This document shows positions 128 through 21,733 of a stretch of DNA of 51,080 nt, piece by piece. A program made the position numbers and the translations under genes. Source of the DNA: a virus; IMG/VR virus record IMGVR_UViG_3300050501_000150, positions 1 through 51,080 of that record; one strand, given 5' to 3'. The notes under the pieces were generated by a model that saw only the letters and a program-made list of their open reading frames with translations, was not told where the DNA came from and ran no database searches. Each line of letters starts with the position of its first letter. The first letter of the stretch is position 1.

Positions 128-199
128 AAATTCCTGCCCGTAGTTGCGCGCAGCGTCGCGCGCAACGGCTTCGATATCTGTTAATGAATCAGGTTTCAT
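1..199 (-). CDS. 5' part of an 88-aa hypothetical gene split by linearisation of the circle
   Basis: ATG at 199..197 overlaps the terL stop (ATGAAACCTGA). The frame stays open to base 1 and continues at 50953 downwards. Confidence 0.6.
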   Translation of the reverse strand, partial: MKPDSLTDIEAVARDAARNYGQEFDALPPHSQAYWSDLVRELNVGKEQTAAEHAAAQALAAWSEKR

Positions 200-1955
200 T
201 GTTAGGACTCCATCCTCCCCACGGATCGTCTATAGCGTTATTGGCCGGCGTCCAGCCGGACCAAGGATCGTTCGGATCGGCGTTCTTCTTGGCTTCCCTG
301 TTGCGGATCTCAGCTAGCTTGTTCTCCCGCGCCATTCGCCAGGCGTCCCACTCCCATGATCCTTCGGGAACATCGGGCTTGTTGGCAAGCCGCCAGCCTG
401 CGGGCAATTGCGCTTCGAGCTTCTCGTCTTCAGTCAACGACGCCATTTTCGGTCCCCATCGGCAGAAGATACCCCGCAAGCTGTCCATTGCGTCATCAAA
501 CCACTTGTACGGAACTACTTGCGACTGGCCACGCTGGGTCGTTACCGGCGTATCCGCGTACTTGTAAGATGCGAACTCGGCGCGGTGGCGCGCAAGTCCG
601 GCATCGGTCTTAGGGTTAATGAACTCGTCATCGTCAACAACGAGGAACAATAGCGGATGGCCTTTTAACTGCGGCTTGAACGGATGAGGTTTATCAAAAT
701 GCCTCAGCCTTAACATATGCCGCATCTGAGCGATTCCGGCAGTCTTAGCCGAGTCCATCGCTTGAAAGGGCAGCCCGAACTTGACGCGGTACGTGTCGCG
801 CTCCGACTTGGCCTCGTGACTCATTCGCCACAGCTCGACAGCGCCCTTGTAAGCGTCCGTCTCGGCTTTGATCTGCTCGGCGACGGTATCGACTAGCGCG
901 CCTTTGAATGTCCGGCCCCAGTAGAGGAAATAAAGGCCAGGAATACTTGAGTTCTCAGCCGAAGTCGCTATCAGACTGACAACCGCCGGATGTCCGTCTG
1001 TTGATCCCCAGTCGTGGCCGATGGCGCGGCGCCAGTGTTCGGGGATGGCGCGTTGGCCATAGACTCGGGCAAATTCTGACCACGTTATGACGTGGCGTCC
1101 GGGCAGCCCATCCTCGAACATCGGGAATATGTTCCCGCGTTCCCTAACCTGCCAGTCACCTTCAAGCAGTTGAGCGCGTGTAACGTCGTCGAGTTCGCTC
1201 AGCGACTGCTCATAAGACTCTTGATCCAAGTAAGGATTGTCCACCAACTTCGCCGGGACAAAGGCGCGTCCGTCTTTCTCGATGACGGCCAAGTCACGAC
1301 CAAATTCAGGCAGCCAGTTATCGGGTATAAAACGCTGCTGTACCCACTCTGCCCCAATGCCGCCGGGGTTACTGGCCGACCGCATCCGCAAGGGCACATT
1401 CTTCCCTGCCAATCTCCGCAGCCGACTAAAGAGGTAGGTATATTGCCGCTCTGTGAACTGTGTAAGCTCGTCGAATCCGATAAACTGGTACTCAGCGCCT
1501 TGGTATTGGTAGATGTCCGATTCATTTACGAGATATCCAAATGCCAGCACGGCGCCGCTCGGAAATCGCCACTGCTTCTTTTGTTCGTTCCAACTTGCGC
1601 CGGAAGAAGCAAGCCATTCGCGCGCCCTATCCAGCAACGCCCCCGGCTTGGATAAATCTTGAAATGTGCGCCGTAACAGCAATGCGGAATAGCCAGGAAC
1701 GTGGACATATTCAAGCGCCGCCATAAGCAAGGCCGACGACTTACCACCGCCTGCCGCGCCACCATAGAACGCCTCTCTATGCTCACACTCAAGAAACAGT
1801 TTCTGACGCGGCGTCGCTTCCTGCTGCTGGTAGGAGTCCACTGGCTTGTCGCTCAGCTCTTGCGGCTCCGTCGAGAAGTCGAAATCCTTTATCGCAAATT
1901 GTGCCGTAAAGGATGGCAAGGCTGTCTGGCGTGTGCTTGCGTAACCATTCCTCAT
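189..1955 (-). CDS. terL: Terminase large subunit
   Basis: 588 aa. Walker A FYGGAAGGGKS, Walker B FIGFDELTQF, and a C-terminal nuclease-like region (IGHDWGSTDGHPAV). Followed by the head genes across the junction. Confidence 0.93.
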   Translation of the reverse strand: MRNGYASTRQTALPSFTAQFAIKDFDFSTEPQELSDKPVDSYQQQEATPRQKLFLECEHREAFYGGAAGGGKSSALLMAALEYVHVPGYSALLLRRTFQDLSKPGALLDRAREWLASSGASWNEQKKQWRFPSGAVLAFGYLVNESDIYQYQGAEYQFIGFDELTQFTERQYTYLFSRLRRLAGKNVPLRMRSASNPGGIGAEWVQQRFIPDNWLPEFGRDLAVIEKDGRAFVPAKLVDNPYLDQESYEQSLSELDDVTRAQLLEGDWQVRERGNIFPMFEDGLPGRHVITWSEFARVYGQRAIPEHWRRAIGHDWGSTDGHPAVVSLIATSAENSSIPGLYFLYWGRTFKGALVDTVAEQIKAETDAYKGAVELWRMSHEAKSERDTYRVKFGLPFQAMDSAKTAGIAQMRHMLRLRHFDKPHPFKPQLKGHPLLFLVVDDDEFINPKTDAGLARHRAEFASYKYADTPVTTQRGQSQVVPYKWFDDAMDSLRGIFCRWGPKMASLTEDEKLEAQLPAGWRLANKPDVPEGSWEWDAWRMARENKLAEIRNREAKKNADPNDPWSGWTPANNAIDDPWGGWSPNNET

Positions 1956-3182: not shown

Positions 3183-3458
3183 ATGACACCAGAACAACGC
3201 CAACAATCACTAGCCGCCGCGCGCCGCGCATGCGAACGGCTAAGCGGCTACAAATTCTCGACTAAAGAGATTTGTAAATTCCAGCAGGACACATCTCCAA
3301 GTCTAGGCTTTTTTGCCTACAACCTAGAGGAGTTGATTGACCACCTAATCACAGGTTTTCAACTACTAGACGCCAAAGAACAGAAACAAATTAAAGGCGG
3401 CGCGAAGGGCGCCAAATTCGGCAAGCGTGGCGGCAGGCCAAAGACAAAGCTATCCTGA
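3183..3458 (+). CDS. Hypothetical protein with basic C-terminal tail (plus-strand moron gene 2)
   Basis: 91-aa ORF ending in GGAKGAKFGKRGGRPKTKLS. Confidence 0.7.
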   Translation: MTPEQRQQSLAAARRACERLSGYKFSTKEICKFQQDTSPSLGFFAYNLEELIDHLITGFQLLDAKEQKQIKGGAKGAKFGKRGGRPKTKLS

Positions 3459-4744: not shown

Positions 4745-4986
4745 TGAGTGTTTTCCTCAGTTTTTGGTGTGTCAGGTATTCGCGGCACGGGCGACGATGC
4801 TAGATACGCGGCTGCGGAGATCACACCGGACGTGGCGGCCAGGACTAATGTGCTTTTCCATTGGGCGCCGAGGTTGAATGCGTCTGGCTTGATGACCATT
4901 CCGGCGATCGAATGCGCCGCCCCGCTGACGAATACGGCCGCGAGACCATGCAGCCACAAAAGACCGGATTTAACTATAGCTTTCAT
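4741..4986 (-). CDS. Two-TM holin-like membrane protein
   Basis: I prefer the ATG at 4986 (MKAIVKSG...) because the longer ORF to 5040 would begin inside the terminator hairpin. Two hydrophobic helices and a charged C-terminus. Confidence 0.45.
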   Translation of the reverse strand: MKAIVKSGLLWLHGLAAVFVSGAAHSIAGMVIKPDAFNLGAQWKSTLVLAATSGVISAAAYLASSPVPRIPDTPKTEENTQ

Positions 4987-5001
4987 TGAGGGAGTCCCCA
5001 T

Positions 5002-5049
5002 AAAGCAAAAGCCGCATGAATGACTCATTTTCTGAATCACTCATGCGGC
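5002..5049 (-). terminator. Rho-independent terminator upstream of the lysis-like/late genes
   Basis: On the minus strand GCCGCATGA, 21-nt loop, TCATGCGGC, followed by TTTTGCTTTA. Lies 32 nt after the stop of the 5082..5297 gene. Confidence 0.6.
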
Positions 5050-5081
5050 GAGTTCTTACGAAATTGGTAAGCCTTGAACCG

Positions 5082-5297
5082 CTATCCGATTGTCAATTCT
5101 GCGAGCAGTTCATCGATAGTGGCTATCTCCTGCTTCATCCTGGCCGCCACTTCTAACAAGGTTCGCCTCTCACGTTCCTTTGCATTACGGCGATCGCTTA
5201 AAAACTTCCGCAACTGCTCTGGGCTAAGTCTAAGCGTTTCTACTCTTTCAACGCAAGTAATTTCCTGCGGTTCGTCGAGTTGTGACTGATCAGACAT
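5082..5297 (-). CDS. Hypothetical protein (71 aa, charged/helical)
   Basis: ATG at 5297 preceded by AAGGAG. The longer 5348 start lacks an SD. Confidence 0.6.
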   Translation of the reverse strand: MSDQSQLDEPQEITCVERVETLRLSPEQLRKFLSDRRNAKERERRTLLEVAARMKQEIATIDELLAELTIG

Positions 5298-7300: not shown

Positions 7301-8035
7301 TCAAAACATTTCCTTTCTGGCCATGCCGTGGAGTTCGAGCAGGCGGCGCATAATTGACACCCCATACTGGTCGCTTGCCTGGGACCAATGCTCGCGCAGA
7401 TCATCCTTGCCGACGTTGGAAGTCACGACGAGTTGATGGCGATATGTGTAAATCGCATCCATCAGCAGGAATAACTGCTCACCGGCGAACTCGGTCGGGC
7501 GAGCCTTATCAAACTCGTCGAGAAAGATTAGCCAGCGGCGGGAAGAATCGCGCAGGTTTTCGGATGTAATGACCGGGAGTTGCCCAGATCCGCACTCGTA
7601 GCGGCGGAACTGGCCGAGGAGTTCGGCCAAAGGGATCGCCACCGCTGGCCGATCCTGCTCGATGGCGCGCCTATAAAGCAACCAGCCGAACATCGATTTA
7701 CCGCAGCCAACCCTGCCAGCAAGGAGCAGGGACATATCAGGATCTTTGCGCAGGGCCGCAATTAGCGATGGTTGGCCCTCGTGGCGTGTCAGGTCCGGCT
7801 GGATTGTCTCCAGATCCAACCCGCGATATTCGGGCGGAATCCGATCCATCTTCAGGCGTCGCTGCTTCACCTTGAGACATTCGCAGGGCTTTGCCCCCCG
7901 AGGCTCTAGAAATATCCATCCGAGATCCTGACAAGTCGCGCACTCATAAACAGGCTCAGATCTGTCTCGCATCGCGGATTCCAAGTTCTTCAGTTGTTCG
8001 GGCATTACCAGTTTGAGCGGTGTCAGGTTTGCCAT
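7301..8035 (-). CDS. DnaC/IstB-like AAA+ helicase loader with N-terminal Cys cluster
   Basis: 244 aa. Walker A LLLAGRVGCGKS, Walker B LIFLDEFDK, and N-terminal CATCQD...CEC. The start may be internal (8005 or 7972). Confidence 0.8.
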   Translation of the reverse strand: MANLTPLKLVMPEQLKNLESAMRDRSEPVYECATCQDLGWIFLEPRGAKPCECLKVKQRRLKMDRIPPEYRGLDLETIQPDLTRHEGQPSLIAALRKDPDMSLLLAGRVGCGKSMFGWLLYRRAIEQDRPAVAIPLAELLGQFRRYECGSGQLPVITSENLRDSSRRWLIFLDEFDKARPTEFAGEQLFLLMDAIYTYRHQLVVTSNVGKDDLREHWSQASDQYGVSIMRRLLELHGMARKEMF

Positions 8036-8765
8036 TGGTCTTAAATCCCCCTTTCTCTGGGATTCCGGTGACGGTCCAATCGAATAGCCAGGCGAAATTG
8101 TCTGGCCTGTAGCCGCGTTTAATCCAAGCGATGTAACAGGCCTGAATCTTTCCAGTGTCCGGGGAGTCCCCCAAAAACTGAATCATCTCGTCCCAAAGCT
8201 CTTTCTTCGGGTAGCGGGAGGTTGCAGCCTTTATGGCCAGAATTGCCGGATGCTTACTCCGGGGATCTCCGGGTTTCGGCTTTCGCTTTTTCGCGCCTAT
8301 ATCTCTCTTGTCTTCTCCTAAAGAACTTTCTTCTAGAGATAAAGAATCATGTATATAGGCAACGTCTTTTTGCTCAATCGTTACATCAGCGTTACTTGAG
8401 CGTTTCTCAGGCGTTACTGAAGCGTTACATCTATGCCTTCTCACCCGTTCCGCAGCCAAAACCCTTTGTTTTAGTTTGACTTGCATCCTCTTGCTGATGA
8501 CCGTTACATTTCCATCTCTCTCGTGAGTCTCCGCAACCTGGGTGGTTCGTAATTCAGCTATGGCCGCGACGAATTCAGCGGGAGTGCAGCGACATACACG
8601 GCAGAATTGATCGGGCGTGTATGTGACTTGACCACTACGACCTAACTCGTGAAGGACGCATAACAAATCGAACCAGATCCCCCGTGTTGATGGAGAACAC
8701 ATTGAAAGACCGGAATCTTTCATATCATCAACCAGATCCTCCGCATTGAAATCATTCCCACGCAT
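7956..8765 (-). CDS. Putative replication initiator/organizer protein
   Basis: 269 aa immediately upstream of the DnaC-like gene. The call rests on position and general resemblance only. Confidence 0.45.
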   Translation of the reverse strand: MRGNDFNAEDLVDDMKDSGLSMCSPSTRGIWFDLLCVLHELGRSGQVTYTPDQFCRVCRCTPAEFVAAIAELRTTQVAETHERDGNVTVISKRMQVKLKQRVLAAERVRRHRCNASVTPEKRSSNADVTIEQKDVAYIHDSLSLEESSLGEDKRDIGAKKRKPKPGDPRSKHPAILAIKAATSRYPKKELWDEMIQFLGDSPDTGKIQACYIAWIKRGYRPDNFAWLFDWTVTGIPEKGGFKTNGKPDTAQTGNARTTEELGIRDARQI

Positions 8766-15299: not shown

Positions 15300-15396
15300 G
15301 CGCGCAGTGTAGCCAGGAATGCTTATTTAGTCAACCATTGGCTAACACATTTTTACACACGGTTAACAGATCTAGTGTTATTCATTGCCTAACGGT
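15300..15396. promoter_or_regulatory. CI/Cro divergent switch region with repeated TGSCTAAC-type sites
   Basis: TTGGCTAACA at 15337-46, CGGTTAACAG at 15359-68, TTGCCTAAC at 15385-93. Candidate plus-strand promoter: TTTACA (15351-56), 18 nt, TGTTAT (15375-80). Confidence 0.65.
15305..15333 (-). promoter_or_regulatory. Candidate early-left promoter giving a leaderless cro-like mRNA
   Basis: On the minus strand TTGACT (15333-15328), 17-nt spacer, TACACT (15310-15305), then only GCGCC before the ATG at 15299. No SD. Confidence 0.5.
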
Positions 15397-15900
15397 ATGG
15401 AAAAAGAACGGGACAAATATGCTGAATTGTTCGCCGATTATATGATCGAGGCCATGGCGCGCACCCGATTGCGCCAGTCTGAGATCGCCCGACTGACCGG
15501 GTTGTCGAGGGCGACAATCAGCCAGATCGTAGGAAAGAAGCCCCATTCATTGACGGGCAAGCTACTCCTGCCTGAGCGGGAGACGGTAGACAAAATCGCA
15601 AATGCCTTCGGCGATCCCGTTTCAAAAGCTCGGCGCGCCGCTGGGTATAGCGGCGGCAGTGATAAAGATGAGCGCAAGGCAGGACTCGACGCCGAGCGAC
15701 AAGCACAAGCGGCCCGAATAGCCGAGATGGTAAAGAACTTTGCCCAACTCTCGCCTGAGCGCCAGGCCCAAGTAATGGCGATCATGCAAGTATTACAATC
15801 AGAACACCCAGAAGCCTTACAGATACTTGGCCCAGAATTCACAGTAGAAGACCTAAGCGAACTAGACACAGACTTAATAGAAAAAGACACAGGATCTTAA
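15397..15900 (+). CDS. CI-like XRE-family repressor without peptidase domain
   Basis: HTH LRQSEIARLTGLSRATISQIVGKK. The C-terminal part is helical and acidic. The start is the ATG at 15397 or the TTG at 15385. Confidence 0.85.
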   Translation: MEKERDKYAELFADYMIEAMARTRLRQSEIARLTGLSRATISQIVGKKPHSLTGKLLLPERETVDKIANAFGDPVSKARRAAGYSGGSDKDERKAGLDAERQAQAARIAEMVKNFAQLSPERQAQVMAIMQVLQSEHPEALQILGPEFTVEDLSELDTDLIEKDTGS

Positions 15901-16096: not shown

Positions 16097-16354
16097 TTGA
16101 AAAAATCATACATAGTTGTCTCATCGCGTCTTGAAATAGACGAAGGCGCGGAGGTGATCACGGCCGGGCGAGGGGAATCGAATATTAAGCCCGGGTCTTT
16201 TTGCGTGGTCAAACTCGGTTCAATTATCACGTATGGGCGGTTTTTCCCGAGTCTCGCCGGTTCCGACTGGCTCGTTCAGCCGGGACGCATGGTGCGAATT
16301 GTCGGGAAGGCGGTAATCGAAATATTGGCCCTGGCGATAATGATCTCGCCATGA
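16097..16354 (+). CDS. Hypothetical 85-aa protein coupled to the integrase (degenerate S24/LexA-C-terminal-like?)
   Basis: TTG start 7 nt after AAGGAG. Its stop overlaps the int ATG (ATGA). Beta-rich pattern IKPGSFCVVKLGSIITYGRF...LVQPGR. Confidence 0.5.
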   Translation: MKKSYIVVSSRLEIDEGAEVITAGRGESNIKPGSFCVVKLGSIITYGRFFPSLAGSDWLVQPGRMVRIVGKAVIEILALAIMISP

Positions 16355-17469
16355 TCGACAAACGCTACTCAGCAAAACACCGGCGCAAAATGTGGGGCTT
16401 CGACGAGCGGTTTCTCGACGGCGCTGGACGCAAGAAGCGCGTGCGGCGATACGAGTTCGAGACACGCGACGAAGCCGAAGAAGTGGTTGCCGCACTGAGA
16501 CGAGCGGAGAGGGAAAGGGAGTACGGCTTAGCGCCGCTGATCAATCGGCCGACACTGCAAGAGCTAGTTGAGAAGCGGATTCCCATGATCGCAGCCAAAG
16601 CGGAGCGCACACGCGCGAAACGTATTCTCTATACCTGGCTGTCTCTGATCGATCAGAGAATCAGGGTGGACGAAATCAAAACCGCCACCATTCGCGTCTA
16701 CGTCGAGAAGCGCCAGGCGGACGGGCGGCCACCGTCATCGATCAACAGGGAATTGGCGACGATCGCCGCCACGCTGAATCAAGCAGGAGAAATATTTTCA
16801 GAGTTGGAGCAGTGGAAGACGCCGAAGATGCCGCGACTGAAGGTGATCAAAAGCCGACGCGAGCGATTGATCTCTGACGATGAATACAGGCAGATCGTCG
16901 CCCACCTGCGCCGGCCAATGGATGAGATGGACGGCCCGCCGCCGAATCGTCCGAACGCCTATAAGTGTCGAATCCGCTGCGCCCAGATATTCGAGTTTGC
17001 GATGGCTACCGGCGCCAGGCACGGTGAGATCGTGGCGCTGAAGTGGATGGACATTTCATGGGAGCGGGGAAAGATACTGATCTATCAAAGCAAGACAGAT
17101 CACTATAAGGAGATCCCGTTGAGTTCGTCGCTGATCAGGATTCTGAACGAGCGCAAGCCGGCAGTGGGGACCTATGTATTCACGAAGAACGGCAGGATCT
17201 TTCTCACGTTCTATAAGTTTCTGCGGGCTGCCTGTGAACATATCGGCATCCCCTACGGTCGATGGGAAGAGAATGGGTTGATACTTCATTCCGCGCGCCA
17301 TACTGTCACGACCCATATGATCGAGGCGGGTCTCGACTATGACACGATCGGCTCGATCACCGGTCACAAGGCGAAGGAACTGATAGCGCATTATGGGCAC
17401 AAGCATCCTGGATCTGTGGCTAGAGCTGCCGCAGCTCTGGAGGAAATGAATAAACGGCGCGAAAAGTAG
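16351..17469 (+). CDS. int: Tyrosine recombinase (phage integrase)
   Basis: ATG at 16351. Catalytic signature TGARHGEI (R), HSARHT (HxxR), GHK..LIAHYGH (Y). Confidence 0.93.
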   Translation: MIDKRYSAKHRRKMWGFDERFLDGAGRKKRVRRYEFETRDEAEEVVAALRRAEREREYGLAPLINRPTLQELVEKRIPMIAAKAERTRAKRILYTWLSLIDQRIRVDEIKTATIRVYVEKRQADGRPPSSINRELATIAATLNQAGEIFSELEQWKTPKMPRLKVIKSRRERLISDDEYRQIVAHLRRPMDEMDGPPPNRPNAYKCRIRCAQIFEFAMATGARHGEIVALKWMDISWERGKILIYQSKTDHYKEIPLSSSLIRILNERKPAVGTYVFTKNGRIFLTFYKFLRAACEHIGIPYGRWEENGLILHSARHTVTTHMIEAGLDYDTIGSITGHKAKELIAHYGHKHPGSVARAAAALEEMNKRREK

Positions 17470-17570
17470 CTACGGCTGGCCAATCCGTGGACATGGAAAA
17501 AGTGAAAATATTGCGTCTAAAAGACTTGCCAATGCCTTCGTAGAGAATCATATATTTCAGCCACCTTCGC

Positions 17571-17637
17571 TTACCGCATTGCATTTACATTACTTACCGA
17601 ATTATCCAGTTCCCTGAATTTACCGAATTTACCGATA
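17571..17637 (+). repeat. Four direct TTACCG(A/C)A repeats, candidate attP arm-type integrase sites
   Basis: Copies at 17571-80, 17594-603, 17620-29 and 17629-37, in the 420-bp ORF-free region after int. Confidence 0.5.
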
Positions 17638-17891
17638 GTTCAGTATGGCTGGGACAAATTGTGGACAGCGAATTTTAGCTGTGCTATCTTGCACTCGTTC
17701 AACCGTCCTACTCGTCTGGCACTTCCAATGCCCGGCGCCAATCAACCCTAAAAATAGAACGCCCGCGTGGCGTGATAAAAGCACACCACACGGGCCACCG
17801 CACACAGACCTAAACAAGAATGTGCGGCGGGACATTTATAGCATTTTCGGCCATAAATCGTCACGCCGCCCCTATTAAGAAGGGGGCGAAT

Positions 17892-18659
17892 ATGAACACA
17901 CCTAAATACGAATGGGGAAAGGCCACCATCTTCTGTTGCTGCGTCCTGGCCGCCGCGCTCGGCGTCGGGATCAGCAATTACTACGTCTTTTACGATTCGT
18001 TCTGGATGGCGACGATCTTGCTGGCGATTACTGTCGGAGTGGCAGCCGTCGCCGCCTACTACTCGGGCGATGCAACACCGAAAGTCCGCCACTATTGCAT
18101 AATCTTCCACCTGATTATCGGCGCGGTTCTCTGCGTCAATCTGGCCAGCCACTTCGTCCTTGCCCGCCAGATCAGCGCGGCGAAAACCGGAGTGATAGAT
18201 CGACACGAGGAAGAGAACAGACAAGAGACGTTCCGCGAGCTCGAAGCCAACCGCCAAGCTAAGCTCTTAGCTGAACAGCGAGCGCTGGCGGAAGAAGAGA
18301 GAAAGCGATTGCGCGCGGAGGCTGGGAGGCTGGAAGCCATGCGGCGAATGGGCTATCGCGGCGGGTATGTGCCGCCTGCGAGCGCTCCGGCCCCTGCCCC
18401 AACTGTCCAAGCGCCGCAATTACCGGACTCCCTGACGAAAAGGGAAGAGAAGTCAGCGCCTGCAAAAACGCCCGAGCAACTACAGCGCGAATGGAATCCC
18501 TGGCTAACCTTCTGGGCGTTTGCGGACGTCTTCATTTCGGTGTTGGGTGGCCTAATCCTGGCCGGACGCTGGGAGTGGGACCGGAACCATGACGGGGTTG
18601 CGGATCACCTACAAAAACCCAACGAGTTCCCGCACGAGGTTGACGCGGGAAAATCCTAG
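17892..18659 (+). CDS. Multi-pass membrane protein with central coiled coil
   Basis: ATG at 17892 after AAGGGGGCG. About 4 N-terminal TM helices, a charged helical segment (EEERKRLRAEAGRLEA) and a C-terminal TM. Confidence 0.75.
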   Translation: MNTPKYEWGKATIFCCCVLAAALGVGISNYYVFYDSFWMATILLAITVGVAAVAAYYSGDATPKVRHYCIIFHLIIGAVLCVNLASHFVLARQISAAKTGVIDRHEEENRQETFRELEANRQAKLLAEQRALAEEERKRLRAEAGRLEAMRRMGYRGGYVPPASAPAPAPTVQAPQLPDSLTKREEKSAPAKTPEQLQREWNPWLTFWAFADVFISVLGGLILAGRWEWDRNHDGVADHLQKPNEFPHEVDAGKS

Positions 18660-18722
18660 CCGCTGAGGGAAACGAGGGAACGGCCGCGAGGGCCAGGCCC
18701 TCGGCGGCGATGGAGGTTGAGA

Positions 18723-18809
18723 ATGAGAGACAAGACGAAGGTAGCGATCGGAGTGCTGATTTGGGTCTCGATCGTGGGATATCTGGCGCTCCAGTTGTGG
18801 GTGAAATGA
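18723..18809 (+). CDS. 28-aa single-TM micro-protein
   Basis: GGAGG (18712-16) 6 nt before the ATG. Sequence MRDKTKVAIGVLIWVSIVGYLALQLWVK. Its stop abuts the first iteron. Confidence 0.4.
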   Translation: MRDKTKVAIGVLIWVSIVGYLALQLWVK

Positions 18810-18934
18810 TTGGGGCATTTGAGATCAAAAAACGCAGATCAAATGCCCCAAAAATAGTTGGGGAAATGCCCCAAATTCCCCAGCCGGCAAATGCCCCCAA
18901 TAGCCCCAACGTAACTCTTGGAAATGGGGCATTT
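18810..18934. repeat. Cluster of five 11-bp AAATGCCCCAA repeats (3 direct, flanked by 2 inverted)
   Basis: Inverted copies at 18810-20 and 18924-34. Direct copies at 18841-51, 18864-74 and 18889-900. Further copies at 19243-53 and 19284-94. Confidence 0.9.
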
Positions 18935-18977
18935 GCCAAACCTACCGGATGGTCAAAACTGTGGAGATTGGAACGCA

Positions 18978-19352
18978 ATGGAAAGTATTTCAAGTTCAGA
19001 CTCAGATTCACAAACACCAAAGACACGCCCCCGGAAATCCAGCGCGTCACGAGGCAAGGCGGCAGGATCAGCCCCAAAATCGAAAGGGCGCTCAGCCTCC
19101 GGCCGGGGAAAGGACGCCACGAGGCCTCAAGGGTGGAAGCCGGCAGGTTTCGAAGTCGGGCTATCAATCTTGCAGGCCGGATTCGATCAAGCTCTGGACG
19201 AGGGGCTGATAGCGAGATTGGGGGAATTAGCCCCAACGGAACAAATGCCCCAAAGAATCCTGATCGAGATTTGGGGCGCCGCGATATGCCCCAATTGCCA
19301 GGCGTGGACGGAGCAGGCGAACTGCCCGGCGTGCGGGAATCAGATTGGGTAA
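18978..19352 (+). CDS. Basic low-complexity protein with C-terminal zinc ribbon
   Basis: MESISSS...RPRKSSASRGKAAGSAPKSKGR... then CPNC..x9..CPAC. The frame choice among three overlapping ORFs rests on the protein-like C-terminal half. Confidence 0.55.
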   Translation: MESISSSDSDSQTPKTRPRKSSASRGKAAGSAPKSKGRSASGRGKDATRPQGWKPAGFEVGLSILQAGFDQALDEGLIARLGELAPTEQMPQRILIEIWGAAICPNCQAWTEQANCPACGNQIG

Positions 19353-19389
19353 TGTGATTCTTAACAAAACAATCCAAAGGTAAAGAGCG

Positions 19390-20040
19390 ATGCGATTACT
19401 TGATTTGTTTTGTGGTGCTGGCGGTTGTTCGGCTGGCTATCAACACGCGGGCTTTTGGGTTCGTGGCGTCGATTGCAAGCCGCAGCCGCGATACGTCGGT
19501 GAAGAGTTCATCCAGGGAGACGCGCTTGAATATCTGTCGAGCCTGATTGATTCGGGAGAGATCGAAGAGTTTGACGCTATCCACGCATCGCCGCCTTGTC
19601 AGGCGTACAGCATCATGCGGAAAAAATTCCCTGACCGCGACTATCCCGATTTATACATTGCAACGCGCTCGCTCCTGTCTGGCTTAAAACATCCCTGGGT
19701 AATTGAAAACGTGATCGGCTCCCCGCCTGGACCGTCAATCATTTTGTGTGGCAACTCTTTTGGACTTGGAACCTATAGGCATAGGAGATTCGAGAGCAAT
19801 ATCGCGCTTCTTGCGATGCCCCATAGCCCACACCGAATTAAAAGCGTGAGGCAGGGCTATGGCGCGTATAACGGGGAGATGATGTCAGTTACCGGAGATC
19901 TCAATTCACAAAAATTCTTTGATGCGGCAAAGAAAGCGATGGGCATTGACTGGATGGAGCGCAAAGAACTCTCGCAGGCGATTCCGCCAGCCTATACGGA
20001 ATACATCGGGCGTCAGTTGATGATCGCCCTCGATTCTTAA
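19390..20040 (+). CDS. Small DNA (cytosine-5) methyltransferase
   Basis: 216 aa. Motif I DLFCGAGG, IV PPCQAYS, VI VIENV, X-like QAIPPAYTEYIG. Confidence 0.85.
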   Translation: MRLLDLFCGAGGCSAGYQHAGFWVRGVDCKPQPRYVGEEFIQGDALEYLSSLIDSGEIEEFDAIHASPPCQAYSIMRKKFPDRDYPDLYIATRSLLSGLKHPWVIENVIGSPPGPSIILCGNSFGLGTYRHRRFESNIALLAMPHSPHRIKSVRQGYGAYNGEMMSVTGDLNSQKFFDAAKKAMGIDWMERKELSQAIPPAYTEYIGRQLMIALDS

Positions 20041-20075: not shown

Positions 20076-20765
20076 ATGAACGACTCGAATCAAGAAAAGC
20101 GAGAGAAACTGTTACAAGCAATGATTTACGCGGACGGGGTTGGCGATCAGGCCGGCTACGAATCCGCCCGCGCCGAACTCGAAGGGCAGAAGGGCGACGG
20201 CTACCCCGCCGTTCAGCACGAACTAGGCGAGGACGGAGTTAAAACGCTGGTAGAAGACCGAAATAATGCGCAGAAGCGAATCACCGAGCTTGACGCGCAA
20301 CTGGTCGACTGCCAAGCCACCCTGCACCTGCGCGAATCTCAGCGCGACACGGCAGAGGAAAGCGAGTCGGTAGCGAACGCGAAAGTCAAAGAACTTGAGG
20401 CGCAGCTGGCGGACTTGAAAGACTTCGCCTACAACCGCGCGCCGAAGATTGCGGCTGAGCAGGCGGACAGGCAGATGGCAGAGTTGCGGGCGCAATTGGC
20501 CGAGAAGCAGCGCATCATCAGAGAACACGAAGCGGCGACTGTCCGACTGTGTGGCCAGATAGACGACGCAGTGGCGCGGCTAGTTGCAGCCGAAGCGCGG
20601 GCAGAGGCGATGCGGAAGGCGCTGGAAATGGTGGAATGGCGCGCGAGCGGAGCGCACTATCAATGCTTGTGGTGTCACAATATCAAAATGCTCGGCCACA
20701 AGTCAGACTGCGCGCGTCAAGCCGCCCTCGCGCCCACGCCCGCCGAAAGTGAGGTGAAAGAATGA
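20076..20765 (+). CDS. Coiled-coil protein with C-terminal Cys/His cluster
   Basis: 229 aa with long heptad regions. C-terminal CLWCHN..H..C. Confidence 0.7.
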   Translation: MNDSNQEKREKLLQAMIYADGVGDQAGYESARAELEGQKGDGYPAVQHELGEDGVKTLVEDRNNAQKRITELDAQLVDCQATLHLRESQRDTAEESESVANAKVKELEAQLADLKDFAYNRAPKIAAEQADRQMAELRAQLAEKQRIIREHEAATVRLCGQIDDAVARLVAAEARAEAMRKALEMVEWRASGAHYQCLWCHNIKMLGHKSDCARQAALAPTPAESEVKE

Positions 20766-20986
20766 AGTGTCCAGAATGCCAGTTTGGACTAGATAGTAAT
20801 GGCTTGATTGCGTGGTGTGAAAATGGCCACGCCTACAAACTCGAATCAACTGAATACCCATGTTTTGTTGACGATGGCACATATTGCAGTGTTCACACGC
20901 CCGCCGAACTGACGCCGGTGTTGCCGACGCCTGCGATGCTGGACGCGAAGCGGGCGGTGGATGAGTACGGGAAGGAGGAGAAGTGA
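20762..20986 (+). CDS. Small zinc-ribbon protein
   Basis: 74 aa. MKCPECQ...WCENGH. ATGA overlap upstream and GTGA overlap downstream. Confidence 0.7.
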   Translation: MKCPECQFGLDSNGLIAWCENGHAYKLESTEYPCFVDDGTYCSVHTPAELTPVLPTPAMLDAKRAVDEYGKEEK

Positions 20987-21321
20987 GCAACTACAACCGA
21001 AAGACCACAACGCTAACCTGCCGCAGTTGCGGCGGCGGCCATGTGGCACATGCTGCGCGTGGCAGCAAAGAATGGGTCGTTAGTCGTCTCGATGAACCGC
21101 CTGATGGTCGGCGCTTTTCAATAAGCGCGCCACAGGAATCCTACACGTGCAGGAAATGCCATACGCTGGATGACGTAATGGATTGGTACGGACTTGCACG
21201 TGAAGAAGGCGAGACATTGCAAATCTGGCAACGCCGATACCCGCAATTTGCCGCCGACCTCGCCGAGTTTGAGATGTTCTTACAAGCCGCCGACGCGGAT
21301 AAAGGGGAGGGGGAGAAGTGA
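20983..21321 (+). CDS. Small Cys-rich protein
   Basis: 112 aa. GTG start within GGAGGAGAAGTGA. CRSCGGG...CRKCH. Ends ADKGEGEK. Confidence 0.7.
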   Translation: MSNYNRKTTTLTCRSCGGGHVAHAARGSKEWVVSRLDEPPDGRRFSISAPQESYTCRKCHTLDDVMDWYGLAREEGETLQIWQRRYPQFAADLAEFEMFLQAADADKGEGEK

Positions 21322-21322: not shown

Positions 21323-21503
21323 CGACTTTCACGAACTCAGCAGGGAGAAAAAATGGGAATTTATTGATTCGCTTGACGAAAGCGACATGGCGTGGCTTGA
21401 ATTTCTCAAGCAAGAATCAGGCGGTCGCGCAGGCGTGGCTATGGAACGATTATACCGGTTAAAGAACGCCGCCAACGCGGATAAAGGGGAGGAGGAGAAG
21501 TGA
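21318..21503 (+). CDS. Hypothetical small protein
   Basis: 61 aa. GTG start in the conserved junction. Ends ADKGEEEK. Confidence 0.65.
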   Translation: MSDFHELSREKKWEFIDSLDESDMAWLEFLKQESGGRAGVAMERLYRLKNAANADKGEEEK

Positions 21504-21504
21504 G
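21468..21504 (+). repeat. 37-nt gene-junction repeat, copy 2
   Basis: GCCGCCAACGCGGATAAAGGGGAGGAGGAGAAGTGAG. Confidence 0.9.
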
Positions 21505-21733
21505 AGAGCCAACTTGTAAGCGATGTGACGGCCAGATGGATTGGGTTGACTGCTGGAGCGGGTGCGACGATGGCTATTTCGACGGATATGAAGAAGACCC
21601 GCTATGGTTCCCGCCAGGGGAATTGGAAGTGTGCGGCAACTGCGATGGCAAGGGCGGCTGGTGGCAATGCTTCAACAGTCGATGCCAGCGGGAGGCCGTT
21701 GAAGCCGACGCGGGACGGAGGGAGGATTTCTGA
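21500..21733 (+). CDS. Small CxxC-rich (DnaJ-zinc-finger-like) protein
   Basis: 77 aa. CKRCDG...CWSGC...CGNCDGKG...C. Confidence 0.7.
   Translation: MREPTCKRCDGQMDWVDCWSGCDDGYFDGYEEDPLWFPPGELEVCGNCDGKGGWWQCFNSRCQREAVEADAGRREDF

Follow-up and report, generated by a model that had tools for sequence, protein, structure and literature searches.

A conserved array of 11-bp repeats spanning two overlapping small genes in the integrase-proximal region of a temperate phage

Arrays of sites that accompany the gene for a small DNA-binding protein are a known principle in phages and plasmids. The origin repeats of phage lambda lie within the O gene, and the incC-repA-incA region of P1 and oriS/incB-repE-incC of F carry repeats on both sides of the gene for the binder, with the upstream cluster overlapping its control or 5' region. 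An iteron origin has at least three direct repeats in phase with the helix, as a rule with units of 17-22 bp about 22 bp apart. Likewise, a secondary in-gene operator of lac, about 400 bp downstream, can loop to the primary site (O1-O2). Among phage proteins, SPP1 gp38 binds the oriL repeats within gene 38 and also a second, distant repeat cluster (PMC6316719). Apl of phage 186 and Cox of P2 are small proteins that act cooperatively on three or more adjacent direct repeats at two clusters and regulate transcription (PMC7498355). Here, we describe an array of 11-mers (exact form AAATGCCCCAA) in IMG/VR virus record IMGVR_UViG_3300050501_000150, whose 51,080 nucleotides we call the window. The array lies at 18810-19294 and runs through two overlapping small genes, termed A and B. 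By analogy, Apl/Cox and the initiator-gene-embedded origins are probably its closest functional counterparts; the array itself lacks an adjacent unwinding element and a linked initiator or loader, as expected of an origin, spacing of one helical turn and a place in attP, as expected of a recombination directionality factor (RDF) array, and the adjacent nucleoside triphosphatase (NTPase) expected of a centromere.

The repeated 11-mer array is real, statistically robust, and evolutionarily conserved. With one mismatch allowed on both strands, AAATGCCCCAA occurs eight times in the window, and seven of these matches fall inside the 485 bp of the array. One hundred dinucleotide-preserving shuffles of the window, searched with the same tolerance, returned a mean of 0.96 and a maximum of three matches. 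An initial annotation had placed an iteron-like array here, and every one of its site coordinates was correct on direct reading and two-strand search; a repeat finder recovered the same families along with a perfect 13-bp inverted pair (18810-22 with 18839-51). Including degenerate copies, the window holds about 12 sites, seven in an upstream array and five in a downstream cluster, with four of the 12 inverted (Table 1). Copies form head-to-tail doublets (AAATGCCCCAAATGCCCCAA) at 9-bp spacing, and one doublet follows another at 23 and 25 bp. What was first listed as a second motif, TAGCCCCAACG (18901-11 and 19228-38, also found by the repeat finder), is a genuine repeat but not a separate one: its positions, -51 and +276, hold exact copies of the 11-mer in related loci, and both occurrences are therefore degenerate copies of the same unit. 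Offsets are counted from the Trp codon of a conserved GW pair in gene A (18950 in the window).

Relatives comprised 14 metagenome loci, one GTDB contig of a Blastocatellia metagenome-assembled genome (MAG), and further contigs, cited below by L numbers. At least 18 related loci, drawn from soil metagenomes and one Blastocatellia MAG, keep the array. Plus-strand copies recur at -109, -86, -77, -61, and -52, and the downstream cluster lies at +268 to +337; distal copies vary and are at times inverted. In 13 related loci, the locus's own motif (up to one mismatch) is essentially confined to -260 to +420 of gene A. Across nine AAATGCCCCAA-class loci, column conservation is 0.91 for the motif, 0.67 for the spacers, and 0.81 for adjacent constrained coding sequence.

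All copies at a locus change together, yielding one motif variant per lineage. The variants are AAATGCCCCAA (window, L018-L020, L022, L032, and L039-L041), AAACACCCCAA (L001), AAACGCCCCAA, and AAAT[G/A]CCACAA (L025, L027-L029, L036, and L038), with AAAC[G/A]CCCCAA in L021 and L023; in remote family members, the encoded peptides NAR, QMPE, and QIPG imply AAATGCCCGAA-type motifs. The change extends to the downstream cluster. The first zinc knuckle of B reads ICPN (ATATGCCCCAA) in the window, KCHK (AAATGCCACAA) in L027, and KCHN in L034; AAATGCCACAA occupies both the linker and the CH[K/N] knuckle of L027 (CHKC) and L034 (CHNPEC), and the downstream positions of L023 hold AAAC[A/G]CCCCAA. Inverted copies behave similarly: the one at -26 is GGGGCATTT in the window and GTGGCATTT in L025, and the peptide LGHL, present in L018, L033, and many other relatives, is encoded by an exact inverted copy. 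In the window, each of the three frames runs through some of the copies (SNAPK, EMPQ, and ANAPN) and both orientations occur; the copies of L001 are read as KHPK, ETPQ, and NTP.

These fixed positions, the joint change, the mixture of frames and orientations, and the conservation of motif columns above spacers indicate that the array is selected at the DNA level. Because copies are read in three frames and both orientations, the unit is DNA, neither peptide nor RNA. The pattern points to selection on double-stranded sites matching a co-evolving trans factor, and the general proposal of the initial annotation, a multi-site protein-binding locus, is thus supported at the level of position, co-variation, and column conservation.

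Two alternatives would dispense with such sites. In the first, the repeats have no DNA-level function and are slippage-prone, low-complexity sequence for a Pro-rich disordered N-terminal tail of A, homogenised by expansion, contraction, and conversion. In L001, a perfect 34-bp unit (GATCGATCTTGGGGAAACACCCCAAACACCCCAA) stands three times in tandem at 3342-3440, each unit with GATCGATC, which indicates recent expansion of that array. Slippage could account for this triplication, for the 9-bp doublets, which are in-frame tandem duplications, and for a frame A that is open through the array in all loci. We nevertheless consider it improbable: the copies spaced at 23 and 25 bp do not share a frame, several copies are inverted, deep divergence has left copies at orthologous positions in place while their spacers drift, and the lineage variant recurs in copies 400 bp off, which belong to another gene and frame and include one in a zinc knuckle. 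The second alternative is action at the RNA level, with the repeats or a UUGGGG-N5-CCCCAA leader hairpin bound by an Arg-rich protein in translational control or boxB-like antitermination. Positions 18858-18874 can indeed fold into a pentaloop hairpin whose stem is 6 bp long, three hairpins of this kind follow one another in L001, and A has an arginine-rich helix in its predicted structure. This reading is very unlikely given that the hairpin is missing from L018, L022, and L027, that many copies are inverted (4/12 in the window, 3/7 in L038, and palindromes in L034), and that no Rfam match was found. An invertible segment between the inverted copies was also considered and dropped, as L027 has direct copies only.

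The long open reading frames (ORFs) across the array had been regarded as artefacts. This does not hold for all of them: the frame at 18710-19357 encodes a conserved domain of 95 aa (GW.KLWR.ERNG.Y...RLRF...TR.GGKI..IE...G.GRH..SR..A.R.R.RA..A.RIR), strongly basic and with invariant Arg residues, which we name A. Frames A (18710-19357) and B (18918/18978-19352) are open in every relative, including L001, a related viral contig at 62% amino acid identity. Codon positions were compared across six loci. Over 186 nt from the GW codon, there are 181/174/299 differences at frame-A positions 1/2/3, and this third-position excess shows that frame A is constrained there; over the next 75 nt (~19133-19208), the counts are 105/14/5, with the variation on the third codon position of B. 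The segment that codes for both A and B spans about 42-70 nt (~19136-19204). A profile search of 1.84 billion representative proteins recovered only 54 members of the A family; the B family numbers 41 hits.

Three codons are candidates for the start of A (Table 1). A conserved block, VT[LIF].N..FA.P[TS]GW, directly abuts the -52 copy, and its substitutions are of a protein-level kind (e.g., Lys to Arg by two changes). Most loci have no in-frame ATG, GTG, or TTG between the last motif copies and this block; the nearest start is an ATG within a motif copy (-84 or -75), a TTG (-93), or a codon much further upstream (-120 in L027, -135 in L001, and -234 in L029), and frame A is free of stops from -240 to 0 in 13/13 loci. 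With no start in between and an open frame, the 5' coding region of A holds at least the proximal copies. The array had been placed just upstream of, and partly inside, the zinc-ribbon gene; the second half of that statement stands for the downstream copies, which are in B, but the proximal upstream copies sit in the 5' coding region of A. A suspected likeness of the A hairpin (LWRLERNGKYFKFRLRF) to integrase arm-binding domains found no search support and is not claimed here.

Gene B encodes a conserved domain of a helix, a beta-hairpin, and a C4 zinc ribbon, extending from ~19130 to 19352. In an AlphaFold2 (AF2) model, residues 58-124 reach a predicted local distance difference test (pLDDT) score of ~84, and residues 1-55 stay below 50. 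The first ~50 residues of B, predicted to be disordered, are an overprint of the A domain; the "basic disordered" N-terminal half initially ascribed to the zinc-ribbon protein is a +1 reading of A. In L025 and L028, A ends directly after RIR. B stands alone in L025, L036, L028, and L038, with its own ATG from the His codon of A (CAT G) and a Shine-Dalgarno sequence, and the stand-alone B proteins P0095 and P0097 are 69-71 aa. The A stop after RIR and the independent B start show that A and B are separate products. A programmed +1 frameshift from A into B was rejected on the same separate products in distant loci, on the lack of a conserved shift signal, and on a junction Arg codon that varies (AGG, AGA, CGG, CGA, CGC). 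Automatic gene callers choose frame A or B depending on the relative, and A, B, and an adjacent transmembrane (TM) peptide are merged or missed.

Several lineages join the B domain to a T5orf172/MUG113 (GIY-YIG-like) domain that replaces gene A (Table 1). In one of these loci, L034, palindromes composed of the same half-site, TGCCACA[A/C]GTGGCA, form an array upstream; a comparison aimed at an A-like protein in this locus gave an hhalign probability of 0.3.

The array is co-inherited only with A/B and two membrane proteins. From tblastn synteny and gene tables, the conserved unit runs in the order membrane/coiled-coil protein, TM peptide(s), array, and A/B or T5orf172-B. The TM peptide (a basic N-terminus and a TM helix) is kept in L039, L040, L041, L018, L001, L021, L022, and L029; its frame shows conservative substitutions, and frame A over the same DNA shows non-conservative changes. 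L034 carries two small TM peptides. Synteny of the larger membrane protein was found by tblastn in L001, L019-L022, and L039, with analogous proteins in L028, L032, and L034; its homologues, one of them from a Blastocatellia MAG, are all unnamed. In all contexts seen, the cassette occupies the accessory region near the integrase. Its downstream neighbours vary, from the methyltransferase of the window to a Lar-like restriction alleviation protein in L039 (8888-9142) and DUF932 in L028 (5579-6541); in L040, an Acb2/Tad1-hairpin protein (4964-5212) lies upstream of A/B, between the integrase and the membrane-protein gene. The cassette therefore appears to border an integrase-proximal, accessory block of anti-defence type.

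This distribution bears on who could bind the sites. L039 encodes a serine integrase and no homologue of the window CI, yet it carries the same motif, an A that is 84% identical, and a membrane protein that is 82% identical. L040 has a tyrosine integrase at 67% identity and a CI at only 39%, again with the same motif. Since motif and cassette are independent of integrase type and repressor, Int and CI are not the cognate binder, and the comparison excludes two of the three proteins that had initially been named for binding assays.

The same loci weigh on the possibility that the repeats are recombination sites, either integrase arm-type sites or RDF sites of the Xis/Apl/Cox kind with A as excisionase. 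The cassette lies 1.3-3 kb from the integrase in the window, L018, L032, L034, L039, and L040, and RDFs such as Apl bind direct-repeat arrays at two separate loci (PMC7498355). However, the same motif and a near-identical A accompany a serine integrase in L039, an enzyme type that uses no arm sites, as well as the tyrosine integrases of the window and L040, and the array is intact in the MAG contig L032. Spacing also differs: Apl and Cox are helix-turn-helix (HTH) proteins whose sites are one helical turn apart (10-11 bp; criterion from PMC7498355), with one cluster at attP, whereas here spacings are 9 and 23-25 bp, the cassette accompanies either type of integrase, and no HTH was detected. 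Moreover, a different repeat, ATTTACCGA, is present in the non-coding stretch right after int. We rate a recombination role as highly improbable.

That stretch deserves description of its own. The segment 17570-17635 holds ATTTACCGA twice in tandem, plus variants; tandem GAATTTACCGAATTTACCGA is at 17616-17635, and the variants are at 17570-17600. The 9-mer is unenriched genome-wide (13 matches against 9 expected), and a terminator-like hairpin with a 14-bp stem lies on the minus strand at 17761-17795. The non-coding stretch as a whole (17470-17820) could be attP with arm sites.

Our proposal is that a sequence-specific DNA-binding protein of the cassette, A and/or B, recognises the 11-mers as its cognate sites and forms an autoregulatory looped complex on them, and we put the chance of this at about even. 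Binding, the identity of the binder, and the output are all things we infer from sequence comparison. The most likely binder would be the small, Arg-rich A, with the main array in its own 5' coding region, and zinc-ribbon B may act with A or in its place; T5orf172, the fusion partner of B, is a domain found in viral DNA-binding proteins, which we count in favour. Several protomers would bind the proximal head-to-tail doublets cooperatively, and the same protein would also occupy three to five auxiliary sites, 330-480 bp downstream, in the linker and zinc knuckle of B. A DNA loop could then bridge the two clusters and enclose the A/B genes. The outcome would be either autoregulation or a roadblock to transcription entering from the integrase-proximal membrane-protein genes, and the block affected would be the variable early genes downstream, anti-defence-type in relatives and a methyltransferase here. 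In contrast to the lac operators, there are many sites here, most of them direct repeats, and no promoter was identified in the primary cluster.

Several observations weigh against this proposal. A consensus scan for sigma-70-like promoters, which may not capture the rules of the host, found none at 18700-19000; the nearest predicted one is at 17662-17690. The A domain has no significant match in Pfam, PDB, PADLOC, or NCBIfam (the PHROGs scan used the frame-B translation only), and its AF2 model, a beta-hairpin with helices, is unreliable (pLDDT 49). Likewise, B returned nothing significant from Pfam, PADLOC, NCBIfam, PDB sequence searches, or PHROGs, and its model gave no fold match to PDB or BFVD with Foldseek. 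The T5orf172-B loci retain the B-internal sites without A, which makes B a serious candidate binder or suggests a third factor. The motif variant tracks the A/B lineage, a tracking inseparable from shared descent, and no residue-to-motif covariation in A or B was clean of phylogeny. Finally, a host factor that differs between hosts may be the binder.

A bolder version of this proposal has an outside chance in our estimation. A/B would be a new, self-contained recognition cassette, either a looped nucleoprotein switch gating the anti-defence and early gene block near the integrase of temperate Acidobacteriota phages or a portable iteron-in-gene mini-replicon. Its lineage-specific sites would be written into the codons of A/B, including a site at the zinc knuckle of B, and specificity and sites would have co-evolved repeatedly.

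The initial annotation also raised an origin of replication and a partition site. It noted correctly that the array lies away from the recognisable replication genes, as the loader and helicase are at 7.3-11.2 kb, and the array is probably not the replication origin of the phage. An iteron-type (secondary) origin, with an initiator gene wrapped around it and a downstream cluster that serves as copy control of the P1 incA type, is nonetheless the kind of element that its layout recalls. Direct repeats are at 23-25 bp spacing; as in SPP1 gp38/oriL and lambda O/ori-lambda, short direct repeats lie in the coding region of the presumed binder, in a segment tolerating any frame; and as in P1 and F, clusters flank the gene. 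Low-GC viral contigs hold the same 11-mer at 22-23 bp spacing in a replisome-organizer-like ORF by the gene for single-stranded DNA-binding protein (L011), and in L002 an array of the same 11-mer (774-1189) lies directly 3' of an ORF that, on our reading, may be the C-terminal portion of a primase-helicase. Some weight is left to the origin reading by the repeats in the presumed binder's gene, the second cluster, and the organizer-like ORFs of these other contigs.

We regard it as quite unlikely all the same. The array has no AT-rich unwinding element: minimum GC content in 60-bp windows is 0.42, the lowest value over 18780-19349 is 0.40 (18960-19019, inside gene A), and 0.32 is reached only in the short gap after the B stop (19350-19409). 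In contrast to SPP1 and lambda, no initiator, loader, or helicase is adjacent, and A, at ~100 aa, has no known initiator fold and no winged-helix or Rep signature. Compared with P1 and F, the unit is 11 bp rather than 19-22 bp, the downstream cluster lies inside a second, overlapping gene, and no Rep-family protein, DnaA boxes, or unwinding element accompanies it. The cassette is also integrase-proximal in every context, and a more canonical candidate exists elsewhere in the window. At 8370-8430, five GTAACGC repeats with 11-bp periodicity are followed by a stretch of 32% GC (0.32 at 8320-8379), on the coding (-) strand of an unannotated ORF of 269 aa (7956-8765) directly upstream of the DnaC-like loader. 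By analogy with lambda O, in which the origin is inside the initiator gene, 8320-8430 looks like the best origin candidate of this phage. A resemblance of the CCACAA variant to DnaA boxes was set aside, since TGTGG is all that the two have in common, and even this is missing from the CCCCAA variant.

A centromere-like partition site with a small adaptor, as in parC/ParR, tubC/TubR, or the omega heptads, would fit a dense short-repeat array next to a gene for a small basic protein. No ParA, ParM, or TubZ-type NTPase is present among the neighbours in the window or related loci, and the phages are integrative; this reading we consider extremely unlikely.

The 11-mer itself is met beyond the A/B family. 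Contigs L006, L008, L011 (9448-9560), and L015 carry identical AAATGCCCCAA copies at 22-23 bp in the linker of the replisome-organizer-like ORF, read in three frames, and the arrays of these contigs and of L002 are likely origins of other, unrelated phages; in a collection of this size, sharing of AAATGCCCCAA with them is probably coincidence. Two AAATGCCCCAA copies also occur in further viral contigs, most of which have them as coding Q-M-P-Q repeats and are irrelevant. L005 (72% GC), an unrelated 157-kb viral contig, features palindromic TGGGGCAAAATGCCCCA repeats at 1790-2059 by a sequence that resembles, by eye, a tRNA 3' end.

The window is a temperate phage genome, and the positions of its principal features are collected in Table 1. 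No tRNA was found in it, and the GenBank phage collection held no close relative. Three small ORFs downstream of the methyltransferase (20762-20986, 20983-21321, and 21500-21733) have CxxC...CxxC zinc-ribbon signatures and no family match.

Table 1. Positions of motif copies, cassette genes, and other features of the window, with gene B fusions of related loci
Feature	Position	Strand	Remarks
Terminase large subunit	189-1955	-	
Replication block	6-11 kb	-	VRR-NUC nuclease, DnaC-like loader (7301-8035), HNH-SNF2 helicase
CI-like HTH protein	15385-15900		
Tyrosine integrase	16201-17469		
Plus-strand block	to ~23 kb	+	membrane protein, array, methyltransferase, coiled-coil protein, small zinc-ribbon ORFs
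Membrane protein with coiled-coil segment	17820-18659	+	conserved cassette partner upstream (17889..18659)
TM peptide gene, 28 aa	18723..18809	+	GGAGG Shine-Dalgarno at 18712-16; inside the long frame-A ORF
Gene A	18806..19357	+	frame open to 19357; conserved Arg-rich domain 18905-19204
Candidate start of A	18806	+	ATG; ATGA overlap with the TM-peptide stop
Candidate start of A	18866	+	ATG; in a motif copy
Candidate start of A	18710	+	ATG; used by gene callers
Upstream array	18810..18934		7 motif copies
Exact inverted AAATGCCCCAA	18810-20	-	adjoins the TM-peptide stop codon
Exact AAATGCCCCAA	18841-51	+	
Exact AAATGCCCCAA	18864-74	+	contains ATG 18866
Degenerate copy AAATTCCCCAG	18873-83	+	position conserved in relatives
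AAATGCCCCCAA	18889-900	+	one extra C
Degenerate copy AATAGCCCCAA	18899-909	+	offset -51
aTGGGGCATTT	18924-34	-	1 mismatch
Gene B	18978..19352	+	+1 frame relative to A
Downstream cluster	19218..19294		5 copies in the linker and first zinc knuckle of gene B
Degenerate inverted copy	19218-28	-	conserved position, inside gene B
Degenerate copy ATTAGCCCCAA	19226-36	+	offset +276
Exact AAATGCCCCAA	19243-53	+	inside gene B
Degenerate inverted copy	19271-81	-	conserved position, inside gene B
ATATGCCCCAA	19284-94	+	inside gene B; encodes ICPN of the first zinc knuckle
C5 cytosine methyltransferase	19390-20040	+	downstream of A/B
T5orf172-B fusion, L033	450-941		
T5orf172-B fusion, L034	4001-4477		
T5orf172-B fusions, proteins			P0026, P0028, P0030, P0033, P0037, P0099, P0103, P0104

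Overall, what appears to be new at this locus, judged from its sequence, is not the principle of an array with a linked small protein; it is the two protein families and the unusual layering of frames and sites. Three layers of information, two reading frames and a putative protein-binding code, are packed into about 550 bp. Since A, B, and the TM peptide were merged or missed by automatic callers, the locus can serve in gene-calling benchmarks, and likewise in studies of how binding sites co-evolve with coding sequence. If A or B binds the sites, these would be two unannotated protein families whose recognition sequence can be read from the genome, and the lineage variants would provide natural specificity variants, already on hand, for dissecting recognition. 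In soil Acidobacteriota prophages, the array is the mark of a portable cassette at the end nearest the integrase, by genes of anti-defence type.

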